64,000 nt of DNA from Bacteroidales bacterium (GCA_031286165.1 JAITUU010000055.1:404-64403), one strand, 5' to 3'; shown: positions 10,614 to 43,420, numbered from the stretch's first letter. Notes: generated from the letters alone by a model not told the origin. Program-made: numbers and translations.

Positions 10614-11416
10614 TTATGGTACAAATGCCGTTGTTTTTTCCGTTTTCACTATATAGGTTCGTTGCGATTTTCCGGTTTCCCAACGCGAGGATTTTTCCAA
10701 TTCGTACTGTTTGTTTTTGCAAAATGCAAGGAGTGCTTTGTTGAACCGCTTTTTGCTCCAATCTTTTGTATTCACGCCGGCATCGCCTATAAATTCGTTA
10801 TACACGGTTATTATTGACACTTCTTGGTTTATGCGCGTATTTTCGGGTGTATTTTCAAAATATTGTTCTGCCCATTCTGCAAAGTGGTCGCCCATTTCGC
10901 TTTCGTTTATGCGCTCAAAGAATTTTTTCATGGGCGGGTTTATTTTTCCGTTGTGCTCCACCACTGCTAAATAGTAGTGCAGACAATCAAGTAAAAAATT
11001 AACGTCTTCGTTTTTCCATTCGTCTGTATATTTGGGATTTTCTATAATATCGTAGCCAAAATCATCGCACACTTTGCGGCTTTCGCGGTAGTTGTTCAGG
11101 TCGGTTTTTTCGTGATACCAATCCGAAAAAATGACAAACTGAAAACGCCTCGCCGTAGAACTATCAAAATTCAGCGGCGTAAAATTGGACGTAAAAACCA
11201 TTTTGGGCGATACGGTATATTCTATGTTTTGTTCATGCTGGTGCATTTTTCGACTACTCATATCGCCGGTAATTTGCGAGTAAAAATGGTTGAATTCAAA
11301 GTATTTATTGCAGTCGTCAATCACAATGAGCGAAGTATTTTCGTCTATATTGGAAAACAAAAATTTGTCTTTCACAAGTTCTTTGTCGCGCCCGCCTTTG
11401 GTGAGTATATGTTTCA
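10614..11416 (-). pseudogene. 3' part of the primase/SF3-helicase gene, severed by the prophage insertion
   Basis: Begins directly after the junction with ...HILTKGGRDKEL..., then Walker B SLIVIDDC and KMVFTSNF (SF3 motif C-like). It has no start or Walker A of its own; those lie at 43421-43470. Confidence 0.8.
11412..11416. repeat. Target-site duplication, left copy (TTTCA)
   Basis: TTTCA at 11412-11416 is identical to 43416-43420. The bases on either side of each copy differ, so the duplication is exactly 5 bp, the length Mu-type transposition generates. Confidence 0.75.
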
Positions 11417-11538
11417 ATTTCTATGGGCTTCACAACCAAACACGAATTGAAAAAAAACGAAATACAATGTGTAATTACCAATAAATAAATAACTTACAAG
11501 CAAAAATAAGCATTACGAAAAGCAATACCAAATACGAA
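11417..11538. repeat. Prophage left end with putative transposase-binding repeats
   Basis: AACCAAACACGAA at 11434-11446 and the variant TACCAAATACGAA at 11526-11538 are the reverse complement of the right-end motif TTCGTGTTTGGTT. One more copy lies in the opposite orientation at 12001-12013. Confidence 0.6.
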
Positions 11539-11785
11539 AAAGCGTAATTTACTGTAATTTTATCGTAATTTTTTTGAGGTATTTTGCCCGCAAAAGTAAT
11601 GTGAGCGTAATTTTGGCATAATTGAGTGCAAGAAAAGCCAAAGAAGCCCATAAAATAAGGCAATCCTGCCAAGCGACCATAGTTATACAGCCTCCTAAAA
11701 AGAGGCTTTTTTTGTGCCTTTTTGTTAGCGAAAAGCCACCACAAGCAAAATAACAAAACCACTAAAAAAATGCCTTTTTTTGCTA

Positions 11786-11821
11786 AAGGTTGTAATAAAG
11801 GTTGTAACGAAGGTTGTAACT
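11786..11821. repeat. Three tandem 12-bp repeats AAGGTTGTAA(Y)(R) in the prophage left arm
   Basis: AAGGTTGTAA starts at 11786, 11798 and 11810 (read directly). The position between the left end and the repressor gene suggests protein-binding sites of operator/enhancer type. Confidence 0.5.
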
Positions 11822-12016
11822 TTTTGTGCATAAAATACCCCCTTAAAACACCCCACTTTGCACTTTTTTTTCGGGTTCGAGGCGTTTTTTTGCGTTTTCG
11901 CTACCCCTATGTGTACAAAATTACCCCCTGTTCAGACCCCCTGTTTGCAGCGTAATATACTGATATTGTGTAAATTATGAAAAATAGCCGTTTTTTTGAT
12001 TTCGTGTTTGGTTTTT

Positions 12017-12040
12017 GGCTATTTGAGGGGCTATTTGAGG
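12017..12040. repeat. Perfect tandem 12-bp repeat GGCTATTTGAGG x2
   Basis: Read directly at 12017-12028 and 12029-12040, immediately after a TTCGTGTTTGGTT copy (12001-12013). Confidence 0.5.
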
Positions 12041-12101
12041 AGGTAGAAGCTTCTTTTTTGCACTAATTATGTAGCCATATACTGCTTGCTCATCCGTAGA
12101 A

Positions 12102-12560
12102 TTATTCGCCCTGTGTTTTCTTTTTCGGTTGCAGTGTCGGTGTGGAAGTGATTGTTGCCGTTTTTTTGTACAACAACTCGTTTTCTGCCTGCAAACGCCC
12201 GATTTCTCGGTTCAATGCCTTTATTTCATTGTCTTTTTCTCGGAGTTGTTCTTTGAGTAGTGCGGTAGTAGTATCTTGTTCTTGTGCTGCAGGTTGTGCG
12301 CACATCGGAGAGGTGCCACCTTGTATATCGCTATTTTTAAGCATTTCGCCCTTGCCGGTTAGTAGCCATTCGGGATTTATTTCGAGATTTCTCACGATGC
12401 TTTCAAGAATGTCATATTTTGGCATAACACCTTTTTTAATATAACCCCGAACATTAGCCTCATTTGACTGTATTAATGTAGCAAACACAGTGTTTTTACC
12501 GTTGCCAAATTTATCTACAAGAAGTTCAATGCGCTCGTGAATAGTCCCGTTTTTTTGCAT
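12102..12560 (-). CDS. Phage repressor (HTH, c/CI-like) with a coiled-coil C-terminus
   Basis: ATG at 12560 is preferred. FATLIQSNEANVRGYIKKGVMPKYDILESIVRNLEINPEWLLTGKGEM is a CI-type HTH signature. Divergent from the early operon. Confidence 0.6.
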   Translation of the reverse strand: MQKNGTIHERIELLVDKFGNGKNTVFATLIQSNEANVRGYIKKGVMPKYDILESIVRNLEINPEWLLTGKGEMLKNSDIQGGTSPMCAQPAAQEQDTTTALLKEQLREKDNEIKALNREIGRLQAENELLYKKTATITSTPTLQPKKKTQGE

Positions 12561-12678
12561 AAAATCAATTTTTATCGTAAGAAAACTCGAAAATAATTTG
12601 CTTAATCGAAATAAATTACGATATTTGCACTGTGTTAAAAAATTAAACACGCCGTAAAGATAACAAAAAATTAAAGCA

Positions 12679-12879
12679 ATGGAAAAATTAATTTACGCCG
12701 ATAAAAAATTACGGGAGCAAGTACGCAAAGCCTTTGCGTGTACCGATGCCACAATTGGCAATTCACTTCTATTCAAACACAATAGTCAAAATAATATACG
12801 CATCCGCACCTACGCCGTGCGTAATGGTGCCTCTTTCTTACGCAAAACAGACTACACTACCGAAGACCTCATTAATTAG
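12679..12879 (+). CDS. Small early protein, Ner/Cro-like by position
   Basis: 66-aa ORF, first gene of the early operon and divergent from the repressor. Confidence 0.4.
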   Translation: MEKLIYADKKLREQVRKAFACTDATIGNSLLFKHNSQNNIRIRTYAVRNGASFLRKTDYTTEDLIN

Positions 12880-12931
12880 ATATGAGATGTGAGATTGAAA
12901 GTAATTATGTAAAAATAAAACACCTCAAAAT

Positions 12932-15070
12932 ATGCAAGATTTCAACGGACAAATATGTGTAACAGGTGCGGAAGCAAAAGCAGCCATTGGCGAACATACC
13001 TATTGCTACCTATTGCGCAGCAACAAAATAGCCAATGCCGCAGGGTATGGTTGTAACGGAAAATCTGCTCTCTACCCGGTGGACGATTTTCCGCTCAAAT
13101 ACAAAGCAATGCTCTATGACTACTACCCCGAACTTTCGGACGAACAAAAGCGCAGGGAAATGATTAGTGAACAAAATTACCTCATAAGCAACATTATGCC
13201 CGACCCAAAGGCGCGAGCATTTTTTACCACCTACGAAAAACCCAACGGTGCAGAACTCAGCCCCGAAGAAAAAAGCAAATACGAAAATTCGGCAAAAATT
13301 CTCAACGCTCTGCGTGTGATGTACGAACGCTCATACTCCATGCACTCTCGCAGCGGCAAAGCGCATAAATTTCGCATAGGCGATTTTTGGCGCGGCGTGG
13401 AACGGCACAAAGACATTGTTTCCGCGCAATTTCCCAACTGCCTGCCCTGGCATTGGAAAAACTTACAATCCCTTGCCGGCGAGTATGCCGGCAATAATTA
13501 CGCTGCCCTGCTCAACGGCAGAATTGGCAACCAAAACCGCACGAAAAAACAGCGTGATTTGCTCACAAAAATAGTACTCAGTATCTACGCCGACCTTGAA
13601 AAACCTTTTAAATCGGACGTAACACGCATTTACAACGAATTTGTACTCGGCGTGCGTGAACTGTATATAAAAGCAACCGGCGAGGCGTTCAACCGCGCCG
13701 ATTTTTACCGCAACGGCGAACCCGAAACCATAAGCGATGCGCTTGTGTTCAATATCATTGAAAATCCACTCAACCGCAAAATTGTTGATACAATCCGTAA
13801 CGATTTTCACTACAATCAGCAACATCACAATGCCGCCATGCAGCGTATTTCTCCCGAATTTTCGCTCTCGAAAATTTCGGCAGACGACCGCGACCTTGTG
13901 CGCCGCTGCTGGGTACCGGGCAAAGACGGCAAGAGCAAAGTGATGGCTACCGTACACGCTTACTACATTTACGATGTGGCAAGCGGAGCCATAATAGGCG
14001 CGGCACACAGCCTCAAAAAAGATACCAACCTTGTCATGGAGTGCTATCGCAATTTATGGAACAATCTGCGCACGTGGGGGCTTGGCACTCCGCTTGAAGT
14101 GGAAGTGGAAAACCACCTTATGAAAGGTGGCACAATGGAGCAACGCCTGCACAACACCTTTACACACGTAAGCTATTGCGCCCCAATGAACTCGCAGGAA
14201 AAACGAGCCGAACATTTCAATAAAGCCAAAAAATACTACGGCGAATATGCTGAATTTAAAGTGGGTATGGCAAAAGGACGGCACCACGCACAGCACGAGG
14301 CGTATTTGGGTACTCGCAAAAAAGTATTCGACGAACACAACGATACCTACGAGGAGCAATTACCCGCGTGGGATTACAATTCGGTGGTAGCCGAAGATTT
14401 GGCACACATAGAATTGTACAACAAAGGCAAACATACTGCCAAAGACAAAAAAACAAAAGAACTCAAATATGGCGGCATGACCCGAATACAAGTGTTGCAA
14501 ATGCGCCAAAACAGCAAATGCGGCGCACTCAATTGGCGTTTGATATGCAAAGAATGGGGCGTGGAACGCGAAACAAGCCTTAAACGCGGCGCATCGTTCA
14601 CGGTGGATTACCGCGAATGGTGGTTGAGCGATGTTTCACTCATTCAGCGTTTCAAAGCGCACAATACCACCGCCACCGCATATTTCATACCCGATGCCGA
14701 AGGAAGAGTAAACGAAATATTCGTTTATCAAGACAATACATTTATTGACAGTCCGCGACACATTGGCAGTTTCCAAGAGGCTATTGCAGAACAAACAGAT
14801 GCGGACTTGCACATAATGCACACACAGTTAGGCTTTAAAAACGCGCAAAAAAGCCTTGCCTCACAAACGGCTGACGAATATTTACTCGGCAAAATCGGCA
14901 GCATAAAAACCGAACAGATAGACAGTGCATTTGCGCAAGTAACCACAAGCGAAACAATCCGCTATCTGCCGCCCGAAGACGAACTACTCGAAACACCCGA
15001 TTTCGTAGAATCGGATTACACACAGTACAGCCCCGAAGAATGGGCAGCACTATCGTTACAAGCAATATAA
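12932..15070 (+). CDS. DDE transposase (MuA-like)
   Basis: 712 aa, second early gene, directly upstream of a MuB-like ATPase. Candidate catalytic residues include ISADDRDL and KKDTN...(about 30 aa)...EVEVENH, a D..D(35)E-like spacing. Confidence 0.8.
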   Translation: MQDFNGQICVTGAEAKAAIGEHTYCYLLRSNKIANAAGYGCNGKSALYPVDDFPLKYKAMLYDYYPELSDEQKRREMISEQNYLISNIMPDPKARAFFTTYEKPNGAELSPEEKSKYENSAKILNALRVMYERSYSMHSRSGKAHKFRIGDFWRGVERHKDIVSAQFPNCLPWHWKNLQSLAGEYAGNNYAALLNGRIGNQNRTKKQRDLLTKIVLSIYADLEKPFKSDVTRIYNEFVLGVRELYIKATGEAFNRADFYRNGEPETISDALVFNIIENPLNRKIVDTIRNDFHYNQQHHNAAMQRISPEFSLSKISADDRDLVRRCWVPGKDGKSKVMATVHAYYIYDVASGAIIGAAHSLKKDTNLVMECYRNLWNNLRTWGLGTPLEVEVENHLMKGGTMEQRLHNTFTHVSYCAPMNSQEKRAEHFNKAKKYYGEYAEFKVGMAKGRHHAQHEAYLGTRKKVFDEHNDTYEEQLPAWDYNSVVAEDLAHIELYNKGKHTAKDKKTKELKYGGMTRIQVLQMRQNSKCGALNWRLICKEWGVERETSLKRGASFTVDYREWWLSDVSLIQRFKAHNTTATAYFIPDAEGRVNEIFVYQDNTFIDSPRHIGSFQEAIAEQTDADLHIMHTQLGFKNAQKSLASQTADEYLLGKIGSIKTEQIDSAFAQVTTSETIRYLPPEDELLETPDFVESDYTQYSPEEWAALSLQAI

Positions 15071-15088: not shown

Positions 15089-15967
15089 ATGATTACAACA
15101 GAATTAAAACAGAAAATTGCCGCGGCAATGACCGACCGGCGTGAGAATTTCGGCGGCTCCGACAGTCAATATGCCGTAAGTTTGGGCATCAACGCTTCCA
15201 TTTACAACCGCATAAAAAACGGCGAAACCGAGCGCGTGCTTGCCGATGCCAAATGGATAAGCCTTGCCCGGAACTTGAATGTGGAACTCGGCGCAGGCGC
15301 AGCATGGCAAACGGCAAAAACGCCGGTATATGTAGCCGTAAGCACACAGTTGGAATTTTGCCAAGAAAAAAGCGCACTCGCCGTATTGTGCGATGATGCC
15401 GGAATAGGTAAAACCTACGCCGCCGAACAATACGCCCGCAGCCACAAAAACGTGGTGTATGTGGATTGTAGTCAAGTGAAAACAAAACAACAATTAGTAC
15501 GATTTATAGCCAAAGAATTGGGGCTTGGGTACACCGGTATTTACCGCGATGTGTACGGCGATTTGGTGTTTTATTTGCGTACACTGCTCAAGCCCCTTAT
15601 TATACTCGATGAGGCAGGCGATTTGAATTACCCTGCGTTTTTGGAACTCAAAGCCCTGCAAAACAAAACCAAAGAAAGTTGCGGTTGGTACATGATGGGT
15701 GCCGATGGCTTGCGCGAAAAAATCAATTCGGGCATACGCCACAAAAAAGTAGGCTTTGCCGAAATTTTCGACCGCTACGGTGCCAAATTCCAAAAAATTA
15801 CGCCCGAAGGCAAAGAGGAGCGGAAGGAATTTTACGCGGCACAAGCGGCGGCAGTTATCAAAGCCAATGCTCCCGAAGGCACCGACCTGCGCAAAATGCT
15901 CCTCGCCACCGATAGCCGCCTGCGCCGCGTGTATATAGAAGTTAAAAAGGCTTTAAACGCCGCTTAA
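15089..15967 (+). CDS. Transposition ATPase (MuB/TniB-like AAA+)
   Basis: N-terminal HTH-like YAVSLGINASIYNRIKNGE. Walker A DDAGIGKTYA and Walker B LIILDEAGD. Confidence 0.75.
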   Translation: MITTELKQKIAAAMTDRRENFGGSDSQYAVSLGINASIYNRIKNGETERVLADAKWISLARNLNVELGAGAAWQTAKTPVYVAVSTQLEFCQEKSALAVLCDDAGIGKTYAAEQYARSHKNVVYVDCSQVKTKQQLVRFIAKELGLGYTGIYRDVYGDLVFYLRTLLKPLIILDEAGDLNYPAFLELKALQNKTKESCGWYMMGADGLREKINSGIRHKKVGFAEIFDRYGAKFQKITPEGKEERKEFYAAQAAAVIKANAPEGTDLRKMLLATDSRLRRVYIEVKKALNAA

Positions 15968-16002: not shown

Positions 16003-16659
16003 ATGGCTTTCTTCACAAACAATAATATTGTAACTACCAAACACGAAACCTTACCTTTTTCCGGCAAGTGGCACGACAGTTTCGGCTGTCCGCCGGTAAG
16101 CGGTTCGTGGATACTCTACGGCTCAAGCGGTAGCGGCAAAACAAGTTTTGCCCTGCAACTTGCCAAATACCTGACAAACTACGAAAGAGTGCTCTATTGG
16201 AGCATAGAACAAGGCAATAGCAAAACATTCCAAAAAGCATGGAAACGCGAAAACATGCAGGAATGCGGCAGCAACATAATCGTTGCCGATGGCGACACCG
16301 GTTTTGAAATGATTATAAAAACAATGACACAGCGCAAAGGGCGCAATATTCTCATTGTTGATAGTCTCACACCACTGCGTTACTTCAACGAGTTTAAAAA
16401 CGGCGTACACAGTATCAAATCCTTTGGCGTAGCCGAATACATAAAATTTTGCAAGCGCATGAAAGGTAAACTCATCATTTGGATTAGCCACGAAAAACAA
16501 GGATTGCCCGATACCACAGTAGGCGACTACATTATGAAACTTGCCGACCTCAAAATGAGGTGCGAAGGCTACAAAGTAATGACAAACAGCCGCGCCGGTG
16601 AATCTATGAAGGATTTTATTGTGTGGGAACGTGGCGCACGAGAATATAAAGGAATTTAA
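16003..16659 (+). CDS. RecA/KaiC-like P-loop ATPase
   Basis: Walker A YGSSGSGKTSFALQLA and Walker B-like NILIVDSLTPL. Confidence 0.55.
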   Translation: MAFFTNNNIVTTKHETLPFSGKWHDSFGCPPVSGSWILYGSSGSGKTSFALQLAKYLTNYERVLYWSIEQGNSKTFQKAWKRENMQECGSNIIVADGDTGFEMIIKTMTQRKGRNILIVDSLTPLRYFNEFKNGVHSIKSFGVAEYIKFCKRMKGKLIIWISHEKQGLPDTTVGDYIMKLADLKMRCEGYKVMTNSRAGESMKDFIVWERGAREYKGI

Positions 16660-17545: not shown

Positions 17546-18190
17546 ATGGAAGTAACAATGACCCCCGAAGAACGCGCAGAATTTGAGGCGTTCAAAGCCG
17601 AAAAAGAACGAAAAGAGGCTCTGCAACGAGCCAAAGACGACCGCGAGGCGTACAAAAATTTGGTGGAAGACCAAATTGAAACCGTATTTCCGCGCCTGCT
17701 GGAAACAAGCGACTACCTGCGCGATGTGAAGCAGAACTGCATGAGATGTTTCGACCAAGCCCTCAAAATGAAAGCCGACCTTTTCAACGTGAAAGACGAC
17801 CAACGCTCGCACACCTTTACCAACGCCGAAGGCACGCGCCGTATTATTTTGGGCTACTACATTACCGATAACTACCGCGACACGGTGAACGAAGGCATCG
17901 CTATCATAAAAGAAGTAATCGCTTCGCTCGCTCGCGACAAAGAGAGCGAAATACTCGTAGAAGCAGTACTCAGACTACTGAGCAAAGACCAAAAAGGCAA
18001 CCTCAAAGCAAGCCGTGTATTGCAACTGCGCAAAATGGCTGACCAACTCGCCAACGAGCGATTTGCCGAAGGCGTGCGCATTATAGAAGAAGCCTTTCAG
18101 CCCGAACAAAGCAAACAATTCATTCGCGCCGAATACAAAAACGAAATCGGCATGTGGGTCAATGTGCCGCTCGGAATGACCGAAGCGTAA
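17546..18190 (+). CDS. Conserved Mu-like early protein (DUF3164-like guess)
   Basis: 214 aa; the size and position match a family common in transposable phages. Unverified. Confidence 0.35.
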   Translation: MEVTMTPEERAEFEAFKAEKERKEALQRAKDDREAYKNLVEDQIETVFPRLLETSDYLRDVKQNCMRCFDQALKMKADLFNVKDDQRSHTFTNAEGTRRIILGYYITDNYRDTVNEGIAIIKEVIASLARDKESEILVEAVLRLLSKDQKGNLKASRVLQLRKMADQLANERFAEGVRIIEEAFQPEQSKQFIRAEYKNEIGMWVNVPLGMTEA

Positions 18191-19895: not shown

Positions 19896-20186
19896 ATGAT
19901 TACACCTGAATTAAAAGACAGTGTGTTGAACGCTATTTGTAACTGCGGATTACAATATGAAGTGATGTATCGCATACCAAAAAAAGAGTTCTTTTCCGCT
20001 ACCGAATTATCTATTGATAATAACGATTTTGTTTCCATAATGAGCCAATTTCAACGAAAAGGCTTTATAGAACACTATGCCAATACTTATTCTGTAATAC
20101 CAATACTATTAAAAATAGAGGCTACCGATTTTCTACAACGAGGTGGATTTGTTGCTCAAGAAAAGTGCTTACCGACAATATTATAA
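19896..20186 (+). CDS. Hypothetical accessory protein in an AT-rich island
   Basis: 96-aa ORF preceded by a TTG...TACATTTG promoter-like motif. Its composition is visibly more AT-rich than the phage core. Confidence 0.45.
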   Translation: MITPELKDSVLNAICNCGLQYEVMYRIPKKEFFSATELSIDNNDFVSIMSQFQRKGFIEHYANTYSVIPILLKIEATDFLQRGGFVAQEKCLPTIL

Positions 20187-20206
20187 AACTCGAAAAAGAA
20201 ATCAAT

Positions 20207-20500
20207 TTACTTGCCAAACAACTTTCTCCAAAATACTTGTAAAAGGCTAATTTTATTGTTTCTCTCGGTTCCGCTATCATTAGTGCTGTAGGATTGATGA
20301 AACAACCCTAATTCAATCGCCTTTAAAGGGTCGTTACATTGTTGGTAAACTCTCCATTCTGCCCTATCTCTATATACCTCTTCATTTTCGCACAACACAA
20401 TTCTTTCAACAAATTGTGTTGCGGCAAATGGCGTATTTGTTTTTTTAGTTTCGTAGTTAAATATAATTTTGTATGTAACCGTTTGTTTGTTTTTTTTCAT
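20207..20500 (-). CDS. Hypothetical accessory protein in an AT-rich island
   Basis: 97-aa ORF on the same strand as, and downstream of, the MuF-domain gene. Confidence 0.45.
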   Translation of the reverse strand: MKKNKQTVTYKIIFNYETKKTNTPFAATQFVERIVLCENEEVYRDRAEWRVYQQCNDPLKAIELGLFHQSYSTNDSGTERNNKISLLQVFWRKLFGK

Positions 20501-20521
20501 TGTTGTATTGATTTTTGAATT

Positions 20522-20863
20522 TTATTGTTGTATACAATCTAATACACCGACCAAATCGCAATCACAGAGCGAAAGACGGTTTTGAAACCAATTCTTTATG
20601 GTAAAATCATTTTCAAAATCAAGTTTTGAACCTTCTTTAACCACTTCGTTGAAAAGATTAAACTTCTTTTTACCAAGAATAACCGAAAGAGGTGCGAAAC
20701 CTTCGTAAAACACTCCGTCATATACACAATCTCTTTTCGGATATTGAGCAGGACAAAGTTCATCAGGTTCTAACATTCCGCTTTTGAGACGTATTTCTAT
20801 TATACACATTCGGAAAAGAAGGGTGTTAAAGTTTCGATGTTTCGTTGGAAATAATATTGCCAT
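20522..20863 (-). CDS. Hypothetical accessory protein; candidate immunity partner of the MuF C-terminal domain
   Basis: 113-aa ORF, the first same-strand gene downstream of the MuF gene. The immunity role is inferred from the polymorphic-toxin gene-order rule only. Confidence 0.3.
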   Translation of the reverse strand: MAILFPTKHRNFNTLLFRMCIIEIRLKSGMLEPDELCPAQYPKRDCVYDGVFYEGFAPLSVILGKKKFNLFNEVVKEGSKLDFENDFTIKNWFQNRLSLCDCDLVGVLDCIQQ

Positions 20864-20928
20864 ATTTGTACATTTTTGAATTTTATTGTTGTATCTTTGT
20901 ATTATTAATCAATCTAATTGTTACCGCT

Positions 20929-21144
20929 ATGTCTGACTTGAATTTCTATAAAGAAAAGAAAAAAAACTCTATTTTTTGGGTAGATAATGCACTATACGCG
21001 AAAGGAGAACATCTATTTTCTTTTGATAAAAAGAAGATATACAACCTATTTGCCGATTACCCACACAATATGACTGCCGAAGAAATTGCCATTTTTGACA
21101 AAGAGGAACCGTATTGGTGCGATTTTTTCAAAGACAGAAAATAG
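20929..21144 (+). CDS. Hypothetical accessory protein (71 aa)
   Basis: ATG at 20929 (MSDLNFYKEKKK...). Convergent with the MuF gene. Confidence 0.4.
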   Translation: MSDLNFYKEKKKNSIFWVDNALYAKGEHLFSFDKKKIYNLFADYPHNMTAEEIAIFDKEEPYWCDFFKDRK

Positions 21145-21153: not shown

Positions 21154-22512
21154 TTATTTTATTTTGCCTTTTTCACCTTTTAACTGTCTGTCTTTGTTTG
21201 TATTTATATACCCAAGTAGTTCGCGAAAAGAATCATCTTTCTTGAATAATTCCAAATCTATAAGCACTTCTTCAACTTCATATTTTTCTCCCAAAAATGT
21301 GTGTGATTTTTTCGCTTTAAATCGCTCTTTCAATGCCGCTTCGGTAAGAGGTTTAAACCCATTGTCTTTGGTGTCTTGTAGTTCTAAGTATTCATAACCA
21401 TTATCTATTTTTCGTATTATTGCAGCATGTCGCCCTGATGTAAAATAATACTCTTTCCCTTTTTCTGTTTGTTTTATCAAGTTTACTGCATTAGTAAAGT
21501 CGTTTCCATTTTTGCTTATGATACATCCCGCTTTTTTGGCAATGTCTTTTATGTTGTAGTGTCTTGAAAATATTAAACAACTATTTCCACCTCTGAAATC
21601 CAAAACATCATACCCACATTTGTTTCCAGCGTATGCAAAAGCCAGAGACGAACACGAACCTTTTGTTAAATCTCCACCGCCAATTCGCTCGATTATTTCT
21701 GTTTCAGTTGGCTGTTTTGAGTGGTTCTTAACTTCGTTATATTCTATCTTGTCAAATTTTATATTTTCGATAATCTCATCAAATTTTCGTATTTCTACGG
21801 GCTTCGCTGCCTCTATTTGCTCCCTCAAAAACTGTTCTACTACTTCACGTCCTTTCTCTCCCGTTCGCACAATGTAACCGGCTTTGTCGGTAAAAATTTC
21901 GCCGGTAATACCCGGATTGCCTTCTAATCCTGCCGGTGGGGTAAATTCCGGCACATCGGTATTGTCGGTTACGGCATCGGCGCATTCCTGCATACCGCAC
22001 TTGCACCGCCAGAGTGAGCCGGGTGTATTGCTAACCCAAAAGGGGTCGTTTTTTGCCCACACGCGGTGGTAGAATCTTCGATGTTCTTCGCGCTGAGTTA
22101 CGCTGGTGCTTGGCAGCCATTTGAGGTTGGGAAAAAGGCGCAGGTTATCTGCTTGCATATACACACTCCACTGCTTGGCGGTGCGAGCGCGAGCGGTGGC
22201 GGTGGCGCACTCGGTGTGCTGCCATGCGTGGAACTGTGCAAGGGTCGCCGCTGCCGTGTCGGGGCTGTGGCGCACTATTTGCGTGGCTTGGTAGGCTTTG
22301 TAGGCGGCAAAGCGGTTGGTGTTTGCCTTCAAGTGTTCGCCGCCGCCCTCGTGATACACCATTTCCACTGCTCGGCGCAAACTTGTTGCATAGTGCTTGT
22401 AGAGTTCGCTGTGTATGGGTTTTTCGCTTGCGAGTATTTCCTCTATTGTTTTTTTCGCATTATAGGCTGCCGTCAGTCGCCCAAGCCACTCCCCATCGTT
22501 TCTTACTCCCAT
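21154..22512 (-). CDS. MuF-like head morphogenesis protein with an extra C-terminal Cys/His domain
   Basis: The N-terminal half has the MuF/SPP1 gp7 pattern ...REEHRRFYHRVWAKNDPFWVSNTPGSLWRCKCGM. The C-terminal ~250 aa is AT-rich in coding sequence and contains GGGDLTKGSCSSLAFAY and GRHAAIIRKIDNGYEYLELQD. Confidence 0.75.
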   Translation of the reverse strand: MGVRNDGEWLGRLTAAYNAKKTIEEILASEKPIHSELYKHYATSLRRAVEMVYHEGGGEHLKANTNRFAAYKAYQATQIVRHSPDTAAATLAQFHAWQHTECATATARARTAKQWSVYMQADNLRLFPNLKWLPSTSVTQREEHRRFYHRVWAKNDPFWVSNTPGSLWRCKCGMQECADAVTDNTDVPEFTPPAGLEGNPGITGEIFTDKAGYIVRTGEKGREVVEQFLREQIEAAKPVEIRKFDEIIENIKFDKIEYNEVKNHSKQPTETEIIERIGGGDLTKGSCSSLAFAYAGNKCGYDVLDFRGGNSCLIFSRHYNIKDIAKKAGCIISKNGNDFTNAVNLIKQTEKGKEYYFTSGRHAAIIRKIDNGYEYLELQDTKDNGFKPLTEAALKERFKAKKSHTFLGEKYEVEEVLIDLELFKKDDSFRELLGYINTNKDRQLKGEKGKIK

Positions 22513-22547: not shown

Positions 22548-23789
22548 TTAGTCGAAAAAACTAAGGTCGCCCGGTTCTGCGGCAAAAGCCCCTCTTGCTG
22601 CCTCTCCCCACAAGGGAGTGGGGAAGGAATTTTGCAATGCAGCAGTAACACCGGCACCCATCGGAGCCGGTGCTGCAAATTTATCTGCCACCGGCACACC
22701 GAATTTTTCCTCAATCCATTTGTTATCCACCTCTTTGTATGGCAGCAATTCTTTCACTATTTCCCACAGTTTGGCAGTATTTTCGCTCGCAGAAAAGCGA
22801 AAAATCTCGGTTCCGGCAGGGAGCCAGCCCATGGCGCGAAAGGCAGGCAGCACTACGGAATTGATGTACATTTCCACCATGCGTTTATCGCTTTCTATTA
22901 AGCGGTTGAGCATTTCTATGGAGAGTTCCTCTTTTGAGCGGTTGCCGTTTTGTGTGTCCTGCCCTATAATTGCGCCGCTTACTAAAAGCGATGTTTCGTT
23001 GTTGCACAAGCGAATGAGGTTGGCATACACATCACCGTTGGTATTCACGCCCTGCAAAAAACTAAATTCTTCGGTGCTGTCTATCACCGCCCATGTAGCC
23101 GCGCCCATTTCGCGCATCATTTGTTCGGCACGGTCGAGCATGGCTTTGTCTCGGGTGTTGGTTTTCAAGTAGCGCGGCGGTATGCCGTAAATTTCGCAGA
23201 GTTCGCTCCAACACGATTGCGCAAATTTTTTGAACAATATGTGGTTCACCGATTTATTGAGCAGCCCTAAGTGTTCGGCGTTAAATTCTATCAGCGAAGT
23301 GCCGTATTCGGCTACGCTGCGGTAGGCAATGCCGGTGGATTGACTTACGTTGGGGTACAATATGCCGAGTTCCGACACCACATGGCGGCGGTCTATAAGC
23401 GTTGCTCGATTGATGCCGTTTTGGTCGGTAAAAATTTCCACCAGCGAGCAGCCGTACCATTCGGAATTGAGAATATGCCCAATAATATCGCGCAAGCACG
23501 GTATGGTATTGAGCGTGGCAGTGGCGTGGTCGTTTACCTTGCCATCGGCTGTTACCAATTCAAAGCCGGCACTGATTGTTTGCTCATTGCGGTTGTTGAG
23601 TTGCGAACTCAGCAGTGCATCGTTTGAAATATCGGTATAAATTTCCTGCAGGAGGTACTGTTTGGGATTTGTGGTGGCAGTAGCCATACGCACGGCGCGT
23701 TTCCAATCGGCTATATCGCGGCGCACCTGCGGAATTTGCCGTTGTACTAACTGTGTGCTTATTTGGGGTGTTTGTTTTTTCTTTGTCAT
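22548..23789 (-). CDS. Portal protein (Mu gp29-like)
   Basis: 413 aa, located between the TerL and MuF genes, the canonical portal position. Confidence 0.65.
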   Translation of the reverse strand: MTKKKQTPQISTQLVQRQIPQVRRDIADWKRAVRMATATTNPKQYLLQEIYTDISNDALLSSQLNNRNEQTISAGFELVTADGKVNDHATATLNTIPCLRDIIGHILNSEWYGCSLVEIFTDQNGINRATLIDRRHVVSELGILYPNVSQSTGIAYRSVAEYGTSLIEFNAEHLGLLNKSVNHILFKKFAQSCWSELCEIYGIPPRYLKTNTRDKAMLDRAEQMMREMGAATWAVIDSTEEFSFLQGVNTNGDVYANLIRLCNNETSLLVSGAIIGQDTQNGNRSKEELSIEMLNRLIESDKRMVEMYINSVVLPAFRAMGWLPAGTEIFRFSASENTAKLWEIVKELLPYKEVDNKWIEEKFGVPVADKFAAPAPMGAGVTAALQNSFPTPLWGEAARGAFAAEPGDLSFFD

Positions 23790-28983: not shown

Positions 28984-30204
28984 ATGCTAAACGATATACT
29001 TTTTGAAAAACAAAACGGCGGAATGGGGCGCACAGCCCCCAATGCCGACCCGGTGAGCGGACTACTCATGGCTCTCGGCACCGGTATTGCAGCCACGCTT
29101 GCGCAATTTGAGCGCATAGGCGAAGGCGGCGCACAGGTGGCAGTAATCAAACTCAAATACTTTGAGCAATTGGCAAATCAATTCGGCATAGCCGAAAGCC
29201 TGCCCAAAGACCTGCCCGAAGGCGCAGAACTGAGCGAAGTGCAAAAACAGCACAACGCCATAGTGCAGCACGTGCGCGAGTTCTTCCGCATGTCGCCCGC
29301 AGGCACGCTCTACCTTGCAATCAAAGCAGGCGGCGAAATTTCGGGCGAACACATCAAAGCCCTGCAATATTTCGCCGGTGGCGAAATCCGTCAAGTGGGC
29401 GTGTTCTCGGCTGCCATAGCCGTAGCCGACTACCAAAGTGCTGCCGATGAACTCTCCGGCGAACACCAAGCACTGAGCGTAATAGCCACACCTGCCAAAG
29501 GCGCAAGCACCCTTGCCGACTACTACGATGAAGATTTGAGCCAAGTGGCAAAAAACCGCGCCAATGTGAGTATTCTCATTAGCCGCGACCTCGACCCCGC
29601 GCTCGACGAAAAACTCGGCGCATGGGCGCAATATGGCTGCATAGGCACCGTGCTTGGAGCCGTAAGTGCAGCCGCCGTGCACGAAAGCATTGCATGGGTG
29701 GCAAAATTTCCGCTCTCGCTCAAAATACCCGGATTCATTACCGGCGAAGCGGTGAAAACCGTAAGCACCGCCACGCTCAATTTGATTAACGACCTGCGTT
29801 ACCTCTTTGTGCGCACCCACACCGGCGATGCAGGCAATTACCTGAACGACAGCCACACGTTGGACGAAGCAACTTCCGATTATGCCTTCATAGAAAACAC
29901 GCGCACTATGGATAAAGCAATTCGTGGTATTCGTAGTAATCTTTTGCCCTACCTGAATGCACCACTCTATGTGAACCCTGAAAGCGGAAAACTCAGTTTC
30001 GGCACGGTGGCGAATTTGGAACTCATAGCAAGTAAAGCACTCGAAGACATGGAAAAAGCAGGCGAACTAAGCGGCTACCGTGCCGTAATAGACCCCGAAC
30101 AAAACGTGCTTGCCACAAGCGAAGTAGAGGTGCAAATTAAAAACGTGCCGGTGGGTGTCATGCGCACTGTGCGGGTGAAAATTGGATACACCACGAAAGT
30201 ATAA
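28984..30204 (+). CDS. Putative tail sheath protein
   Basis: 406 aa, followed by a 142-aa tube-sized gene, a frameshifting chaperone and a tape measure gene. Called from order and size only. Confidence 0.45.
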   Translation: MLNDILFEKQNGGMGRTAPNADPVSGLLMALGTGIAATLAQFERIGEGGAQVAVIKLKYFEQLANQFGIAESLPKDLPEGAELSEVQKQHNAIVQHVREFFRMSPAGTLYLAIKAGGEISGEHIKALQYFAGGEIRQVGVFSAAIAVADYQSAADELSGEHQALSVIATPAKGASTLADYYDEDLSQVAKNRANVSILISRDLDPALDEKLGAWAQYGCIGTVLGAVSAAAVHESIAWVAKFPLSLKIPGFITGEAVKTVSTATLNLINDLRYLFVRTHTGDAGNYLNDSHTLDEATSDYAFIENTRTMDKAIRGIRSNLLPYLNAPLYVNPESGKLSFGTVANLELIASKALEDMEKAGELSGYRAVIDPEQNVLATSEVEVQIKNVPVGVMRTVRVKIGYTTKV

Positions 30205-31744: not shown

Positions 31745-33760
31745 ATGGCAGATAATTCAATAAATTTCACGTTTACCATAGGCGGTAATGCCATTCCTGT
31801 TTGTGTGGATTTGGGTAATGCAGTAGAGGTGGTAACTCAAAAGGCTACTGATGCTATGAGTATATTTGATAAAATAGGAAAAAACGCATTTCATTTTACC
31901 GCCGTTACTGATGCTGTTTCTAAATTGAGTACAAGTATTCAATCAGCCATTCAACCCGGCATAAGTTTCGACCACTCGCTGCGTGAACTTTCGGCTATTG
32001 CACAGGTAACAGGTAGCGACCTCGAAGAAATAGGCAACAAAGCCCGCAACCTTGCAAAAACTTTCGGAGGCGATGCCACTGATTATGTAGAATCGTTTAA
32101 AGATGTGATAGGCAGTTTGGGCGACACCTTTTCCGACAGTACTGCGCTTGATATGATGGGCGAGAACATAGCCACACTCAGTAAACTCATGGGCGGCGAT
32201 GCCAAAGCCGCAGCCAATGCCTTAACAACGGCAATGCTGCAATACGGCGTAGATTTGAGCAACCCCATAGCAGCATCGGCAGAGGCAGCACGTATGATGA
32301 ATGTAATGCAAGCCGCCGCCAATGTGGGTGGTTCCGAAGTTGCCGACACCGCAGAGGCTCTGCGTCAATCGGGACTGCTTGCCAAGCAAAGCGGCGTGGG
32401 TTTTGAAGAACTCAACGCCTCGCTCGAAGCCCTCGCAAAGGGTAAAATAGTAGCAGGCGAGGCAGGAACGGCTATGCGTAACATTCTGCTTTCTATGAGT
32501 ACACTCGGCAGTTCTTCAAAAGAAGTAACCGAAGGGCTGAAAAAATACGGAGTGGACGTAGCGTTGGTAGCCGACCCTACGGCAAAATTTACCGACCGCC
32601 TGCGCGAACTGCAAAAAATACAGAATGACCCCGGATTGATGGAGAGCGTGTTTATGAAAGCAAACATTGCCGCCGGACAAACCATACTCAACAACATTGA
32701 TACCATAGACGAATGGACGGTGGCTGTTACCGGCACCAACGCCGCCGTAGAAGGTGCGGCTATTGTAATGGAGAGTTTTCAGGAACGGCAGGAACGCATA
32801 CAGGCGAAATTCAACGATTTGAAAATTTCGTTTTTCGAGGCTACCGGCGATTTGGGATTGTGGGCTTCCACCATTGCACAATCGCTGGTGCCAATGGCGC
32901 AAATGCTGCCGCTCTTTTCAGGCGTAGGCAGCGGACTGTTGCATGTAGCCAAGTATGGCAAAGATGCCTACACTGCGTTGGGAATGTACAACGGCTATTT
33001 GAGTATAGGAAAAGTGGAAAATTTGGGCTTTGGTAAAAACGTGTTACAAGCGGCAACGGCACTTGTACGCTTTGCCACCGTAGGCGTAGTAAACGGATTA
33101 AAAGGTATAGGCGCATGGATTCTTTCGTTAGTAACAGGCGGTGCGGCATCGGTAAAATTTGCAACAATTTCTTCCGGTGCTTTCGGAACCTTTGCCGCCA
33201 CCGCACGCACGGCTTGCACTGCTGTTTCAACGGCAATTTCCTCTATTCCTATTATCGGGTGGATTGCCCTTGCCATAACCGCCATTGGCACGCTCGGCGT
33301 GTATTTATACACCAAATGCGATGGTTTTCGCGCCTTTGTGCAGGGAACATGGGAGGCTATCAAAGCAATATTCAGCAGCGAAAGCATGAGCGATGCCTTT
33401 CAGCGCGGCTACGCTGAAAGTATGAAAAAATCGGCAGAGGCGCGTAAAAAATTGGAGGAAGACGAAAAGGCAAAAGACGGCACTGCCGATATAGATAAAA
33501 TGATTGCCGACCTGCAAACCGAAATGGACGCGGAGAAGAAAAAGCAAGGCGGCGGCGGAACTACGATTAACAATACGCTCGAAAGTACTGCCACTACTGC
33601 CGCAGGCGATAAAAAAATTCGCAATGTGAACATAACCATTCACAAATTGGTGGAGAATTTTACCGTGAGCACTACCACTCTCAATCAAAGTTTAGATAAA
33701 ATAGAGGAAATAATAACCAATACGGTTATCAACGCATTGAACGATGTAAATTTAGAATAA
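31745..33760 (+). CDS. Tail tape measure protein
   Basis: 671 aa, Ala/Gly-rich helical protein with a hydrophobic central region, located after the chaperone genes. Confidence 0.8.
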   Translation: MADNSINFTFTIGGNAIPVCVDLGNAVEVVTQKATDAMSIFDKIGKNAFHFTAVTDAVSKLSTSIQSAIQPGISFDHSLRELSAIAQVTGSDLEEIGNKARNLAKTFGGDATDYVESFKDVIGSLGDTFSDSTALDMMGENIATLSKLMGGDAKAAANALTTAMLQYGVDLSNPIAASAEAARMMNVMQAAANVGGSEVADTAEALRQSGLLAKQSGVGFEELNASLEALAKGKIVAGEAGTAMRNILLSMSTLGSSSKEVTEGLKKYGVDVALVADPTAKFTDRLRELQKIQNDPGLMESVFMKANIAAGQTILNNIDTIDEWTVAVTGTNAAVEGAAIVMESFQERQERIQAKFNDLKISFFEATGDLGLWASTIAQSLVPMAQMLPLFSGVGSGLLHVAKYGKDAYTALGMYNGYLSIGKVENLGFGKNVLQAATALVRFATVGVVNGLKGIGAWILSLVTGGAASVKFATISSGAFGTFAATARTACTAVSTAISSIPIIGWIALAITAIGTLGVYLYTKCDGFRAFVQGTWEAIKAIFSSESMSDAFQRGYAESMKKSAEARKKLEEDEKAKDGTADIDKMIADLQTEMDAEKKKQGGGGTTINNTLESTATTAAGDKKIRNVNITIHKLVENFTVSTTTLNQSLDKIEEIITNTVINALNDVNLE

Positions 33761-34812: not shown

Positions 34813-35781
34813 ATGGTACAACTGACAGCAAAGATAACAATAAAATCGCAAAAAACATGGGTAATTCACCGAATTACTTCGTGCGAAATAGTGCGCGATA
34901 TTGAAAACCTTACTGCAAAATGCACAATTACCATGCCAAAAAGGGTAACATGGGCGGGCGAAATCTCCATACCCATAAAACGCGGCGACCGCGTACTCGT
35001 GCAACTTGGCTACGACTACGATTATGAGATGGCATTTACCGGTTATATTTCCAAAATAACGGCAAAAACGCCCATTACCATAGAGTGCGAAGACGAAATG
35101 TGGCGGCTCAAACAAACAACGGCAAAGAAAAAAACCTATACCCATGCCGACCTGAAAAACATACTTGCCGAGCAGTGTCCAAAGGGTATGAATATAGAGG
35201 TATTCGGCAAACAAGTGATAGATAAATATGTGGCAAATTTCGACACCGTAGCCCAACTGCTCGGCGGTTTGCAGGAAAACGGATTTACGTTTTTTTTCAA
35301 ACACGGCACGCTCTACGGCGGTATGATGTTCGATTACAACGAGCCGTTGAGCGGTAAAAAACAGGTATTTCACTGCGGCGAACGCGGCAATATTATTGAC
35401 GATAAAGATTTAGCATGGGCAGAATCGGACAGCATATTGGCACGTATAAAAGCCACCGCCATTAACGGCAAGGGCAAAAAAGACCGAATACAAATAGAAA
35501 TTGGCGATAAAGAGGGCAATTTAGGCAGTTTTACCCGGCTGAATGTAAGCAAAGAACAACTTGAAAAAGAGGCAAAACAACGCTTGGCGGAAATAAAGAA
35601 AACAGGGTTGAGCGGCTCGTTTACCACCTTTGGCGCACGGCTCGTGTGGTTGCTCGACCTTGTAAAAATAAAAACCATAGAACACCCCGAAGGTGCTGTG
35701 TATAAGGTGCGTAAAAACACTATCACCTTTGGCGAAAACGGCTACCGCCAAAATATAACAATAGGAGGAAAAGCAAAATGA
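34813..35781 (+). CDS. Baseplate hub / late-control-D-like protein
   Basis: 322 aa counted from the ATG at 34813. The position after the tape measure and before a spike-like gene matches P2 gpD / Mu gp44. Confidence 0.45.
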   Translation: MVQLTAKITIKSQKTWVIHRITSCEIVRDIENLTAKCTITMPKRVTWAGEISIPIKRGDRVLVQLGYDYDYEMAFTGYISKITAKTPITIECEDEMWRLKQTTAKKKTYTHADLKNILAEQCPKGMNIEVFGKQVIDKYVANFDTVAQLLGGLQENGFTFFFKHGTLYGGMMFDYNEPLSGKKQVFHCGERGNIIDDKDLAWAESDSILARIKATAINGKGKKDRIQIEIGDKEGNLGSFTRLNVSKEQLEKEAKQRLAEIKKTGLSGSFTTFGARLVWLLDLVKIKTIEHPEGAVYKVRKNTITFGENGYRQNITIGGKAK

Positions 35782-36883: not shown

Positions 36884-37303
36884 ATGGAAAACAACCTCCC
36901 ACGCGGCTTGCGAAACAACAACCCCTTGAATATGCGCATAGGCGAAAGTGCATTTACCGGCGAAATCAAACCGGGCACAGATAGAAGTTTTCGCCAATTT
37001 CAAACTATGGCGTATGGCTACCGCGCCGCCTTTCGGCAAATGGAACTCTACTTGGGGCGCGGGCTGAATACGATTGAAAAAATCATAACAACATGGAGTC
37101 CGCCCGAAGAAAACCACACGCAGGCGTATATTGCTATGGTGTGCGCCCACACCGGCATTGCATCCACAAAAGTACTCACGCTCCACAGCGGCGAAGATTT
37201 TATACGAATAGTAGCCGCCATGAGTTACGTGGAAAACGGGCAACAACCGGTAATGGCAGACGTGCTTGCGGGATTTGCGTTACAAACGGCAATAACAAGA
37301 TAG
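36884..37303 (+). CDS. Conserved phage protein with an RNNNPLNMR motif; candidate cell-wall hydrolase by context
   Basis: 139 aa: PRGLRNNNPLNMRIG...FRQFQTMAYGYRAAFRQMELYL. Directly precedes two membrane/lipoprotein genes. Confidence 0.35.
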   Translation: MENNLPRGLRNNNPLNMRIGESAFTGEIKPGTDRSFRQFQTMAYGYRAAFRQMELYLGRGLNTIEKIITTWSPPEENHTQAYIAMVCAHTGIASTKVLTLHSGEDFIRIVAAMSYVENGQQPVMADVLAGFALQTAITR

Positions 37304-42505: not shown

Positions 42506-42506
42506 G

Positions 42507-42760: not shown

Positions 42761-42766
42761 CCAATA

Positions 42767-42797
42767 AAACCCCGCTCGAAAAAGTGGGCGGGGTTTT
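42767..42797 (+). terminator. Terminator after the 48-aa moron
   Basis: AAACCCCGC-tcgaaaaagtgg-GCGGGGTTT followed by T. Confidence 0.65.
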
Positions 42798-42813
42798 ATT
42801 TAAAATTATAATT

Positions 42814-43062
42814 ATGGAAATAACAGTAACACAACAACAAAAGGCAATGAAATACCAAATGAAAGATATTGCATTAGATATTACATGGTCGAAGATAGCG
42901 AAACGGTACTTTGGAAAGTCCGCCTCGTGGATGTATCATAAGTTGAACGGAATGGACGGCAATGGAAAGCCAACCGATTTTAGTCCGGAAGAAAGAGAAC
43001 AACTAAAAAATGCATTGTTTGATTTTTCGGAAAGAGTGCGAACGGTTGCTTATGCTATTTAG
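42814..43062 (+). CDS. Moron protein (82 aa)
   Basis: ATG at 42814; the tracked GTG start lies inside the preceding terminator hairpin. Followed by its own terminator. Confidence 0.45.
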   Translation: MEITVTQQQKAMKYQMKDIALDITWSKIAKRYFGKSASWMYHKLNGMDGNGKPTDFSPEEREQLKNALFDFSERVRTVAYAI

Positions 43063-43097
43063 GCTCAACACATAGTGTTTCTTTTTTAATACACCCG

Positions 43098-43128
43098 AAC
43101 CCTGCAATGAGCCTTTGCAGGGTTTTTT
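43098..43128 (+). terminator. Terminator after the 82-aa moron
   Basis: AACCCTGCAA-tgagcct-TTGCAGGGTT followed by TTTT. Confidence 0.75.
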
Positions 43129-43133
43129 ATTGT

Positions 43134-43290
43134 ACGTTGGAACGCAGTTTAATCGGTATTGAAATGGGGATTATCAATCTCGAACCTTTTATAGGCACAG
43201 GAACAACGGCGGTAGTAGCGCGAGAGTTGTGGTTTTAAAATCGAACTCAATCCCGATTATATAGAGATAGCAGAAAAGAGGCTGCGGTAA
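43134..43290 (+). pseudogene. C-terminal remnant of an N6/N4 DNA methyltransferase (frame-broken)
   Basis: Encodes ...IINLEPFIGTGTTAVVARELWF* and then, in another frame, FKIELNPDYIEIAEKRLR*. This matches the DPF-GSGTT...IGIE-N--Y---A--R tail of PF01555-type methylases. No upstream catalytic region is present. Confidence 0.55.
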
Positions 43291-43294
43291 TAGA

Positions 43295-43331
43295 AAAAGC
43301 GCATAAAATTTGATGGTTTTATGCGCTTTTT
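43295..43331 (+). terminator. Terminator after the methylase remnant, near the prophage right end
   Basis: AAAAGCGCATAAAA-tttgatgg-TTTTATGCGCTTTT. Confidence 0.7.
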
Positions 43332-43368
43332 ATACTAAGTTAGTGGAGGTGGCGAAAAAGTGAAAAAA

Positions 43369-43415
43369 TTCGTGTTTGGTTTAAATTTTTTTCGTGTTTG
43401 GTTTTGTGGATTATA
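43369..43415. repeat. Prophage right end with two putative transposase-binding repeats
   Basis: TTCGTGTTTGGTT occurs at 43369-43381 and 43391-43403 (22-bp spacing), 12 bp from the junction. Confidence 0.6.
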
Positions 43416-43420
43416 TTTCA
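43416..43420. repeat. Target-site duplication, right copy (TTTCA)
   Basis: See the left copy. Joining the flanks through one copy gives ...SGGSGKSLMFRSLRTLK-HILTKGGRDKEL... in frame. Confidence 0.75.

Follow-up and report, generated by a model that had tools for sequence, protein, structure and literature searches.

What separates the two halves of a large primase-helicase gene by about 32 kb in a Bacteroidales bacterium, and how did the intervening DNA come to lie there? The gene is in a contig of a metagenome-assembled genome (MAG; GCA_031286165.1), of which a stretch of 64,000 nucleotides (nt) was analysed (JAITUU010000055.1:404-64403, "the window" below); the contig runs 629 base pairs (bp) past this 64-kb stretch. 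A first-pass annotation, made from the sequence of the window, had interpreted the 32-kb segment as a Mu-like transposable prophage, inserted inside the replication helicase gene of another mobile element and inactivating it. Both parts of this proposal held: it is very probable that a temperate Mu-like transposable myophage of Bacteroidales was inserted by DDE transposition into the primase-helicase gene of a resident phage-like element ("element 2" below). The 37 open reading frames (ORFs) of the inserted element were searched against Pfam and PHROGs, homologues of the helicase were sought among 5.8 billion proteins, relatives of the transposase were counted in GTDB species representatives and in IMG/VR, and an AlphaFold2 (AF2) model of the transposase was built from 28 homologues.

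The interrupted primase-helicase gene and the inserted segment

Two minus-strand fragments, defined by reading frames, Pfam matches and homologue alignments, flank the inserted segment: an N-terminal fragment with the BT4734-like_N and PriCT_2 domains and Walker A (43416-45641), and a C-terminal fragment of element 2 from Walker B onwards (10614-11421). They were translated as ...SSGGSGKSLMFRSLRTLK and HILTKGGRDKEL...LIVIDDC...TSNF, respectively. Removal of 11417-43420 (32,004 bp) joined them in frame (...SLRTLK|HILTKGG...), and removal of 11422-43419 (31,998 bp, or 3 x 10,666) did so likewise (...SLRTLKLKHILTKGG...). The fragment motifs and the in-frame deletion listed by the first-pass annotation were thus present, as was the pair of TTTCA pentamers discussed below. 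The rejoined product (about 1007 amino acids, aa) matched three Pfam families (E-values in brackets): BT4734-like_N (2.7e-20), PriCT_2 (1.6e-10) and, at residues 725-831, DUF5906 (2e-5; 25.6 bits, slightly below the Pfam cutoff of 27.6 bits), a match which spans the phage junction. The best match among the 5.8 billion proteins, and the only close full-length homologue, was P0001 (1023 aa), 50% identical over 98% of the length; its alignment was continuous through the junction, and that of P0002 (966 aa) also spanned it, so that homologues aligned contiguously across the join as anticipated.

Because the DUF5906 match and the P0001 and P0002 alignments cross the junction, the two fragments are read as a single gene for a D5/superfamily 3 (SF3)-type primase-helicase whose Walker A and Walker B motifs the insertion has separated. 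The rejoined polypeptide combines an N-terminal primase domain with a C-terminal P-loop helicase carrying both Walker motifs, as SF3/D5-like proteins do, and has exactly the architecture of Bacteroidota D5/SF3-type primase-helicases (BT4734-like_N / PriCT_2 / DUF5906 or DUF3987); such relatives sit in temperate phages (for instance L527), while the split gene here is a pseudogene. Upstream of the insertion the helicase frame extends into ORF 44001-45641, with one in-frame TGA between (44001-44003, minus strand). The P0001 alignment was also continuous through this position (LPXVELNT vs. LPNVSINT), at which the full-length homologue has Asn, and the TGA is either a second lesion in the helicase gene or a sequencing error. 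The phage insertion, falling between the Walker motifs, leaves element 2 with a dead replication gene, and this gene carries the nonsense TGA as well.

The segment between the fragments (11422-43415, plus strand, 31,994 bp) had the gene content of an apparently intact Mu-like transposable prophage. Its early region comprised a leftward repressor candidate with a helix-turn-helix (HTH) domain (12102-12650, minus strand; phrog_3037 transcriptional repressor, 3.6e-5; weak HTH_19 match), followed on the plus strand by a small early protein at the position of Mu ner (12679-12879; phrog_16858, a family of unknown function, 1.5e-4, alone), a 712-aa protein with the MuA/TnsB transposase fold (12932-15070; phrog_310, 4e-23), a MuB-like AAA+ transposition ATPase next to it (15089-15967; AAA_22, 9.9e-16; phrog_296 DNA transposition protein, 1e-37), a second ATPase (16003-16659; phrog_6891, 3.9e-48; AAA_24; 27% identical to the ATPase of a Porphyromonas gingivalis transposable phage) and a DUF3164 protein, a marker of Mu-like early regions (17546-18190; PF11363, 1.7e-8; 33% identical to that of phage fF4).

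The Mu-type head genes (DUF935 portal, MuF, terminase) were all present. A leftward, minus-strand block encoded a MuF-like head morphogenesis protein whose C terminus bears an additional domain (21154-22512; phrog_220, 4728 and 7104, the extra domain corresponding to phrog_7104), a Mu-type portal (22548-23789; PF06074 Portal_Mu, 1e-58), an adaptor, and the terminase large subunit (TerL; 24396-25931; phrog_38, 3.6e-82; 34% identical to fF4). The rightward, plus-strand block that followed encoded a protein like the terminase small subunit (TerS), a ClpP-type head maturation protease/scaffold (26584-27615; PF00574, 2.5e-20), a putative major capsid protein assigned by position (27875-28801; phrog_11320, 2.9e-99; phrog_20525 virion structural protein), the tail sheath (28984-30204; DUF2586, 8e-44; phrog_907 tail sheath, 4e-41), a tube protein, the tape measure protein (31745-33760; PhageMin_Tail, 1.8e-24; phrog_28), baseplate proteins including the hub (34813-35781; phrog_4930, 4.7e-58), an endolysin-like protein (36884-37303; phrog_873, 1.4e-36), a fibre and a DUF5053 protein. 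No integrase or recombinase was found among the 37 ORFs in Pfam or PHROGs. A patch of low GC content (19896-21144; 0.34) with small ORFs on both strands, including a gene for a DUF7675 protein, is probably accessory cargo.

Prophage ends and target-site duplication

The left end (11422-11446, plus strand) consisted of the terminus TATGGGCTTCAC and an L1 transposase-site motif AACCAAACACGAA: the family-conserved TATGGG starts at 11422 and the AACCAAACACGAA site lies 12 nt further, the same offset as in relatives and in fF4. The right end (43369-43415, plus strand) consisted of R2 (43369-43381) and R1 (43391-43403), 22 bp apart, and the terminus TTGTGGATTATA, whose last bases, ...GGATTATA, end at 43415. 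The whole arrangement, TATGGGCTTCAC-AACCAAACACGAA from 11422 and TTCGTGTTTGGTT-TTGTGGATTATA to 43415, is also that of relatives, fF4 and the P. gingivalis phage, and the element was therefore delimited as 11422-43415. The inverted motifs that had been reported near both ends were exact copies of TTCGTGTTTGGTT (11434-11446, minus strand; 43369-43381 and 43391-43403, plus strand), and a fourth exact copy was found about 580 bp inside the left end in the opposite orientation (12001-12013, plus strand); about 0.002 exact copies of this 13-mer are expected by chance in 64 kb, against 4 observed. An L2-like site, TTCGTATTTGGTA, with 2 mismatches (11526-11538, minus strand), lies 92 bp from L1 (91 bp in relatives). 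Repeated motifs inverted at the two ends are characteristic of transposable phages. Copies with 1 mismatch occurred inside genes (16035-16047, minus strand; 25842-25854, plus strand; about 0.07 expected by chance), and these two, together with 12001-12013, may be internal transposase or repressor sites.

The boundaries of independent insertions were compared. At least ten relatives had left ends beginning with a common TATGAGGGGGAGAACGAAACG and preceded by unrelated flanks. One clade provided ten independent insertions with a common TATGAGGGGGAGAACGAAACGTATAT and wholly unrelated DNA upstream, and other clades started with TATGGGGCAC, TATAGGGCAC or TAAGGGGCAC, each about 12 nt ahead of a AACGAAAC site. 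The right ends of more than 20 relatives had ...GTTTCGTT and 12 nt to GCG(G)ATTATA, with unrelated DNA after it. The closest relatives (transposases 61% and 57% identical) start as "gcaat|TATGGGGGTAAAAACAAACAG" and "ccaac|TATGGGCCTAAAAACGAACAG"; the fF4 genome starts with TATAATTATTAAAACCAAAT and ends with TTTGGTTTTGCTGATTATA (...TTTTTGGTTTTGCTGATTATA), and the P. gingivalis transposable phage starts with TATGGGGCAAGAAACGAAACG and ends with ...GCCGATTATA (GTTTTGCCGATTATA). The resulting end consensus was 5'-TA(T)GGG, about 12 nt, AAC(G/C)AAAC ... GGATTATA-3'. About 25 right ends of one clade ("clade C", L168-L239) were conserved only to ...TTTTGCCGGATT and then diverged, their terminus appearing to fall 3 nt short of the ...GGATTATA found in other clades. 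The group was thus inserted at many unrelated sites, as more than 10 left ends and more than 20 right ends with unrelated flanks show. Bacteroides ilei carried two copies at different places, and relatives had variable flanks instead of the att site that, according to the first-pass annotation, would have spoken against its proposal.

The exact end motif of the window phage was not conserved in relatives, and DNA similarity to relatives at the ends was limited to the repressor region. A metagenome scan for the ends of the window phage itself gave 0 loci, a collection scan with the 14-mer AACGAAACGTATAT was too unspecific for use, a sub-clade right-end pattern gave 4 loci, a tail-fibre protein query gave 2, the left-end pattern TATGAGGGGG gave 14 loci and no end pairs, and a degenerate scan for both ends (120 loci) gave no repeated contig name among the 80 listed.

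The two termini abut copies of the same 4-bp sequence, TTTC: the left copy (11418-11421) abuts TATGGG and the right copy (43416-43419) abuts ...GGATTATA, so that the left junction reads ...CAATTTC| and the right one |TTTCAGCG.... Both phage ends were found on four IMG/VR contigs, two from isolate genomes and two metagenomic. In one isolate pair (L382/L423) the abutting sequence was GATT (...ATATGATT|TATGGGGCACAG...GGATTATA|GATTGGCG) and in the other (L372/L429) it was CACG (...AGCCACG|TAGGGGGCACAG...GGATTATA|CACGCCG), while the adjacent 5-mers mismatched in both. Reading frames gave the same length: in both isolate pairs, a long ORF through the insertion site reappeared when 4 nt (or 1 or 7) were trimmed from the right flank (410 aa for one pair, a GH43-like frame of 195 aa for the other), and did not when 5 nt were trimmed. 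A further candidate pair (L138/L420) was unusable, the contig stopping short of the left end. "4 bp bounding repeats" have been published for Bacteroidota transposable phages (P. gingivalis phage paper, PMC10367356). The insertion point in the gene of about 1000 aa would accordingly be the codons ...CT[GAAA]TTG....

The first-pass annotation had placed the duplication at the pentamer TTTCA, present at 11412-11416 and 43416-43420; its right end (43415/43416) and the nesting itself stood, while its left boundary moved from 11417 to 11422 and the pentamer gave way to TTTC. Had the element instead been 11417-43415 with a Mu-style 5-bp duplication, ATTTC (11417-11421) would be part of the phage left end or a filler from imprecise flap repair. 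The identical pentamers, the in-frame rejoining and the gap-free alignment of P0002 and other distant homologues to the 5-bp join speak for this, and a 5-bp target duplication is the rule for Mu itself. The left pentamer, however, is 5 nt off a terminus that is conserved in close and distant relatives, in fF4 and in P. gingivalis phages, the sequences ahead of TATGGG in relatives are unrelated to ATTTC, and the relatives' duplications are 4 bp and not 5. The pentamer repeat is also accounted for by the host codons CTG-AAA-TTG-AAA (LK-LK), of which the left TTTCA is part; ATTTC, between this pentamer and the terminus, is accordingly assigned to the host gene. The two extra residues of the 4-bp join are present in the closest helicase homologue: ...SLRTLKLKHILTKGG... 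aligned gap-free with ALGKLGIKNMETKGG of P0001, the 5-bp join needing a 2-residue gap (556 bits and 2 gaps vs. 551 bits and 3 gaps). A 5-bp duplication was rejected as the primary model, with family termini, paired ends and reading frames all against it, and we consider it improbable.

Some observations weigh against a 4-bp duplication. The more remote homologues of the helicase, at about 32% identity or below, are without the two residues and slightly favour the 5-bp join, and the protein alignment alone therefore does not decide between 4 and 5 bp; the terminus evidence does. Clean end pairs came from two relatives only, and the two metagenomic contigs with both ends (L380/L471 and L394/L173) had no matching repeat; their flanks, from a few to about 100 nt long and at contig ends, were treated as uninformative, and virion-type heterogeneous flanks, chimeric assembly or a rearrangement by replicative transposition are possible causes of the mismatch. 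The two models predict different uninterrupted sites: a 4-bp duplication predicts ...ATATGTTTCAATTTCAGCGTG..., with the extra TTGAAA codons, and an empty-site allele reading ...CTGAAATTGAAACAT... would fit it, while ...CTGAAACAT... would fit a 5-bp duplication.

The same junctions bear on whether phage and island were merely mis-joined in assembly, which is very hard to reconcile with them. The source is a MAG contig, the contigs of relatives often break at phage ends, and the two metagenomic contigs just mentioned had non-matching flanks; but the two joins interrupt a single gene at one and the same nucleotide position, the 4-bp repeat is perfect, and a chimera would not give in-frame, gap-free restoration of a 1000-aa protein at two independent joins. 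An integrase-type prophage or island integrated site-specifically in the helicase gene, for which one might point to the homologous primase-helicase of the integrase-bearing temperate phage L527 as a sign that such genes occur in integrase-type elements, is the least credible of all, with no integrase or recombinase in the 37 ORFs, no long att repeats at the prophage ends, relatives in unrelated flanks and a transposase with its MuB-like partner present.

Judging by the perfect repeat and the intact ORFs, the insertion appears recent and the prophage possibly functional.

The transposase and its relation to known phages

The AF2 model of the 712-aa protein (predicted local distance difference test, pLDDT, 81) had TnsB (9bw1, 4.6e-13) and the MuA transpososome (4fcy, 8.7e-13) as its best PDB matches in Foldseek, followed by ShCAST TnsB, the MuA core (1bcm, 1e-9; 1bco) and then IstA and retroviral integrases, in agreement with the DDE transposase proposed for this ORF. 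In profile alignments with hhalign, the fF4 transposase was matched with a probability of 65%, pairing NSQEKRAEH with NSQANPAEM, and the weak MuA alignment paired D318 with MuA D269 and YYxYDVxSG with WFWQDVKTR. From these motif pairings combined with the predicted order of strands and helices, and not from superposition, we infer D318, E393 and E427 as the catalytic residues. E393 lies in EVEVENH, where fF4 has SDNH and Mu IDNT, and a Glu was invariant at this second catalytic position in the 28-sequence alignment. The E393-E427 spacing is 34 residues, vs. 56 in Mu, where the catalytic residues are D269, D336 and E392.

Several results count against a Mu-like assignment of this phage and its transposase. 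The 712-aa protein had no Pfam match and no sequence-level match in a PDB profile search, and its hhalign probability with MuA was 6.7%; its homology to transposases rests on the predicted fold, the PHROGs match and the 65%-probability match to fF4. Its second catalytic residue would be Glu instead of Asp, as placed by motif and secondary structure. Pfam and PHROGs detected no Mor, Gam or Ner homologue in the prophage, and a GemA match was marginal (E 0.006, below the Pfam cutoff), GemA and Mor being conserved "Saltoviridae" proteins (PMC7761591). The "Ner-like" gene of the first-pass annotation (12679-12879) is Ner-like by gene position and had no Ner match. Close relatives encode a Mu Gam-like protein (L370, 8319-8831; L653, 8072-8593), which was not found in the window phage.

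The mechanism proposed here is modelled on Mu and Tn7: its chemistry is inferred, as are prophage activity, replicative transposition and which helicase lesion came first. On this model the MuA/TnsB-fold transposase would bind the AACCAAACACGAA sites (L1 and L2 on the left, R1 and R2 on the right), pair the ends and expose a 3'-OH at each terminal ...TA-3'; the MuB-like ATPase would choose the target, the ends would be joined to target phosphates staggered by 4 nt, and gap repair would produce the TTTC/TTTC duplication. In lytic growth the phage would multiply through replicative transposition, which was demonstrated experimentally for Hankyphage (PMC12135933).

The transposase family, for which there is no Pfam model, comprised at least 305 proteins, all from Bacteroidota; GTDB species representatives contained 189 loci of this family and IMG/VR contained 458. 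Isolate genomes with such prophages include those of Bacteroides ilei, Alistipes timonensis, Marinifilum flexuosum and Prevotella sp. AGR2160. Contigs of relatives often started or stopped exactly at the termini (...ATTATA; L161, L190, L409) or 0.4-5 kb upstream of the transposase. Breaks exactly at ...ATTATA hint at replicative transposition or headful packaging with host DNA, and are only suggestive; the breaking of Bacteroidota assemblies at such prophages was remarked on by the fF4 authors too (PMC7761591).

Transposable phages had been regarded in the first-pass annotation as poorly documented in Bacteroidota, a view that the literature does not support: Hankyphage (PMC6199706, PMC12135933), fF4 and fF4-like prophages across Bacteroidetes (PMC7761591), Winoviridae (PMC8776804) and the P. 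gingivalis "Alisviridae" (PMC10367356) have been described. The closest characterised relative was fF4 (MN850656; Winoviridae), of nearly the same length (31,958 vs. 31,994 bp). Both phages have a leftward repressor, a DDE transposase, ATPase(s) and DUF3164, then a leftward portal/terminase block and rightward protease, capsid, sheath and baseplate genes, and both have ends of the form 5'-TAT, 12 nt, AACCAAA ... TTTGGTT, 12 nt to GATTATA-3'. Eleven proteins of the window phage were 25-34% identical to fF4, including protease, portal, sheath, baseplate, TerL and DUF3164; protease, sheath and portal are among the core proteins of Winoviridae (Clp protease, neck, major capsid, sheath, protein D and portal; PMC8776804). 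The fF4 transposase, in contrast, had no BLAST match to that of the window phage, only the weak profile match given above, fF4 had no match for the MuB-like or the second ATPase and no BLAST match for the capsid candidate, its second catalytic position is Asp where the window family has Glu, and its host belongs to Flavobacteriales and not Bacteroidales.

Hankyphage p00 and the P. gingivalis phages (candidate Alisviridae) share with the window phage Bacteroidales hosts and transposition that is not site-specific; the candidate Alisviridae also have termini of the same type (TATGGGGCAAGAAACGAAACG ... GCCGATTATA) and published 4-bp bounding repeats, both of which were found here. The MuB-like protein, ATPase, portal, adaptor, TerL and TerS of the P. 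gingivalis phage were 22-32% identical to those of the window phage, and the transposases were similar over the N-terminal 205-223 residues or so only (26-27%). With phage008a of P. gingivalis the early and packaging genes matched and there was no tail-gene similarity, so the structural module is not shared: the window phage has a sheath (myovirus type), and in the P. gingivalis phage a "major tail" protein is found instead. A further difference from this group is that the window phage showed no diversity-generating retroelement.

Mu (AF083977) shares with the window phage the order repressor, small early gene, A and B, a MuA-type fold and an AAA+ partner, multiple end sites (R1/R2 22 bp and L1/L2 about 90 bp apart), genes for a Mu-type portal, for MuF and for virion morphogenesis, and also a contractile tail. 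It differs in its 5-bp duplication (4-bp here) and TG...CA termini (5'-TA...TA-3' here); moreover, the 712-aa protein has no rve or Mu-transposase Pfam match, the head/packaging block is inverted with respect to Mu, and no Ner, Mor, Gam or Com/Mom was detectable in the window phage. On duplication length, terminal dinucleotides and sequence-level transposase homology alike, the window phage would fall outside Muvirus.

Element 2, its neighbourhood and what the nesting means

As had been proposed, the disrupted gene belongs to a second element; this element is phage-like and lies beside host housekeeping genes. The remainder of element 2 (1-10502, minus strand; also 45745-47343) had homologous contigs in L529 and L530. 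Its genes at 1-6661 (minus strand) were collinear with the 18-kb Logan contig L529, at 42-75% amino-acid identity; L529 continues into holin-like and Phage_lysozyme genes, and its source sample also yielded P0001, the primase-helicase in intact form, which SRR13001969 contigs carry. The PAPS-reductase and ASCH-like genes at 7634-8847 are phage-typical. Only two homologous proteins/contigs were found for element 2 in the 5.8-billion-protein set; its structural genes had no PHROG matches and two of its large proteins no INPHARED match. Apart from the more distant primase-helicase homologue already mentioned in the integrase-bearing temperate phage L527, that phage showed no similarity to element 2. 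Several small proteins of element 2 look membrane-spanning, and the AF2 model of a 288-aa protein was all-beta at low confidence (pLDDT 47).

To the right lies chromosomal DNA, with the host tgt gene (queuine tRNA-ribosyltransferase; 51028-52158, minus strand; PF01702, 6e-157) followed by a TsaC-like gene of the Sua5/YciO/YrdC family (Pfam). Beyond these were genes, read by eye, which we take to encode diaminopimelate decarboxylase (lysA-like), glucose-6-phosphate isomerase (pgi) and ribosomal proteins. A GNAT acetyltransferase gene (46646-47185), a HigB-like toxin with an HTH partner (49050-49710) and a PIN-domain gene preceded by a small ORF (49894-50522) lie between element 2 and tgt, and these genes (46646-50522) may belong to either element 2 or the host. 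A search of the window found no tRNA. Element 2 had been called "integrated", which is presumed from the contig that it shares with host genes: the window showed neither an integrase nor an att site for it, and its left boundary lies beyond the contig.

The window phage appears to be a further member of the documented Bacteroidota transposable phages and does not call for a new biological category. Two broader ideas can be joined only tentatively, the combination being possible but on balance doubtful: that its transposase represents a large, Bacteroidota-wide MuA/TnsB-fold family without a Pfam model (catalytic triad D-E-E in place of D-D-E, 4-nt stagger at TA-3' ends), and that element 2 is an unsampled phage lineage silenced by a transposable phage. 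If true, this would be a natural case of one prophage knocking out the replication of another. In this locus, a natural case that could be resolved cleanly, a transposable phage lies inside another mobile element, and insertion into other mobile elements was raised by the Hankyphage authors as a possible route of horizontal mobilisation (PMC12135933). The end sequences and the 4-bp footprint are now fixed for this group of Mu-like prophages, which is very widespread in Bacteroidota, and the end consensus and the 4-bp rule may be used to delimit such prophages and to repair assemblies.

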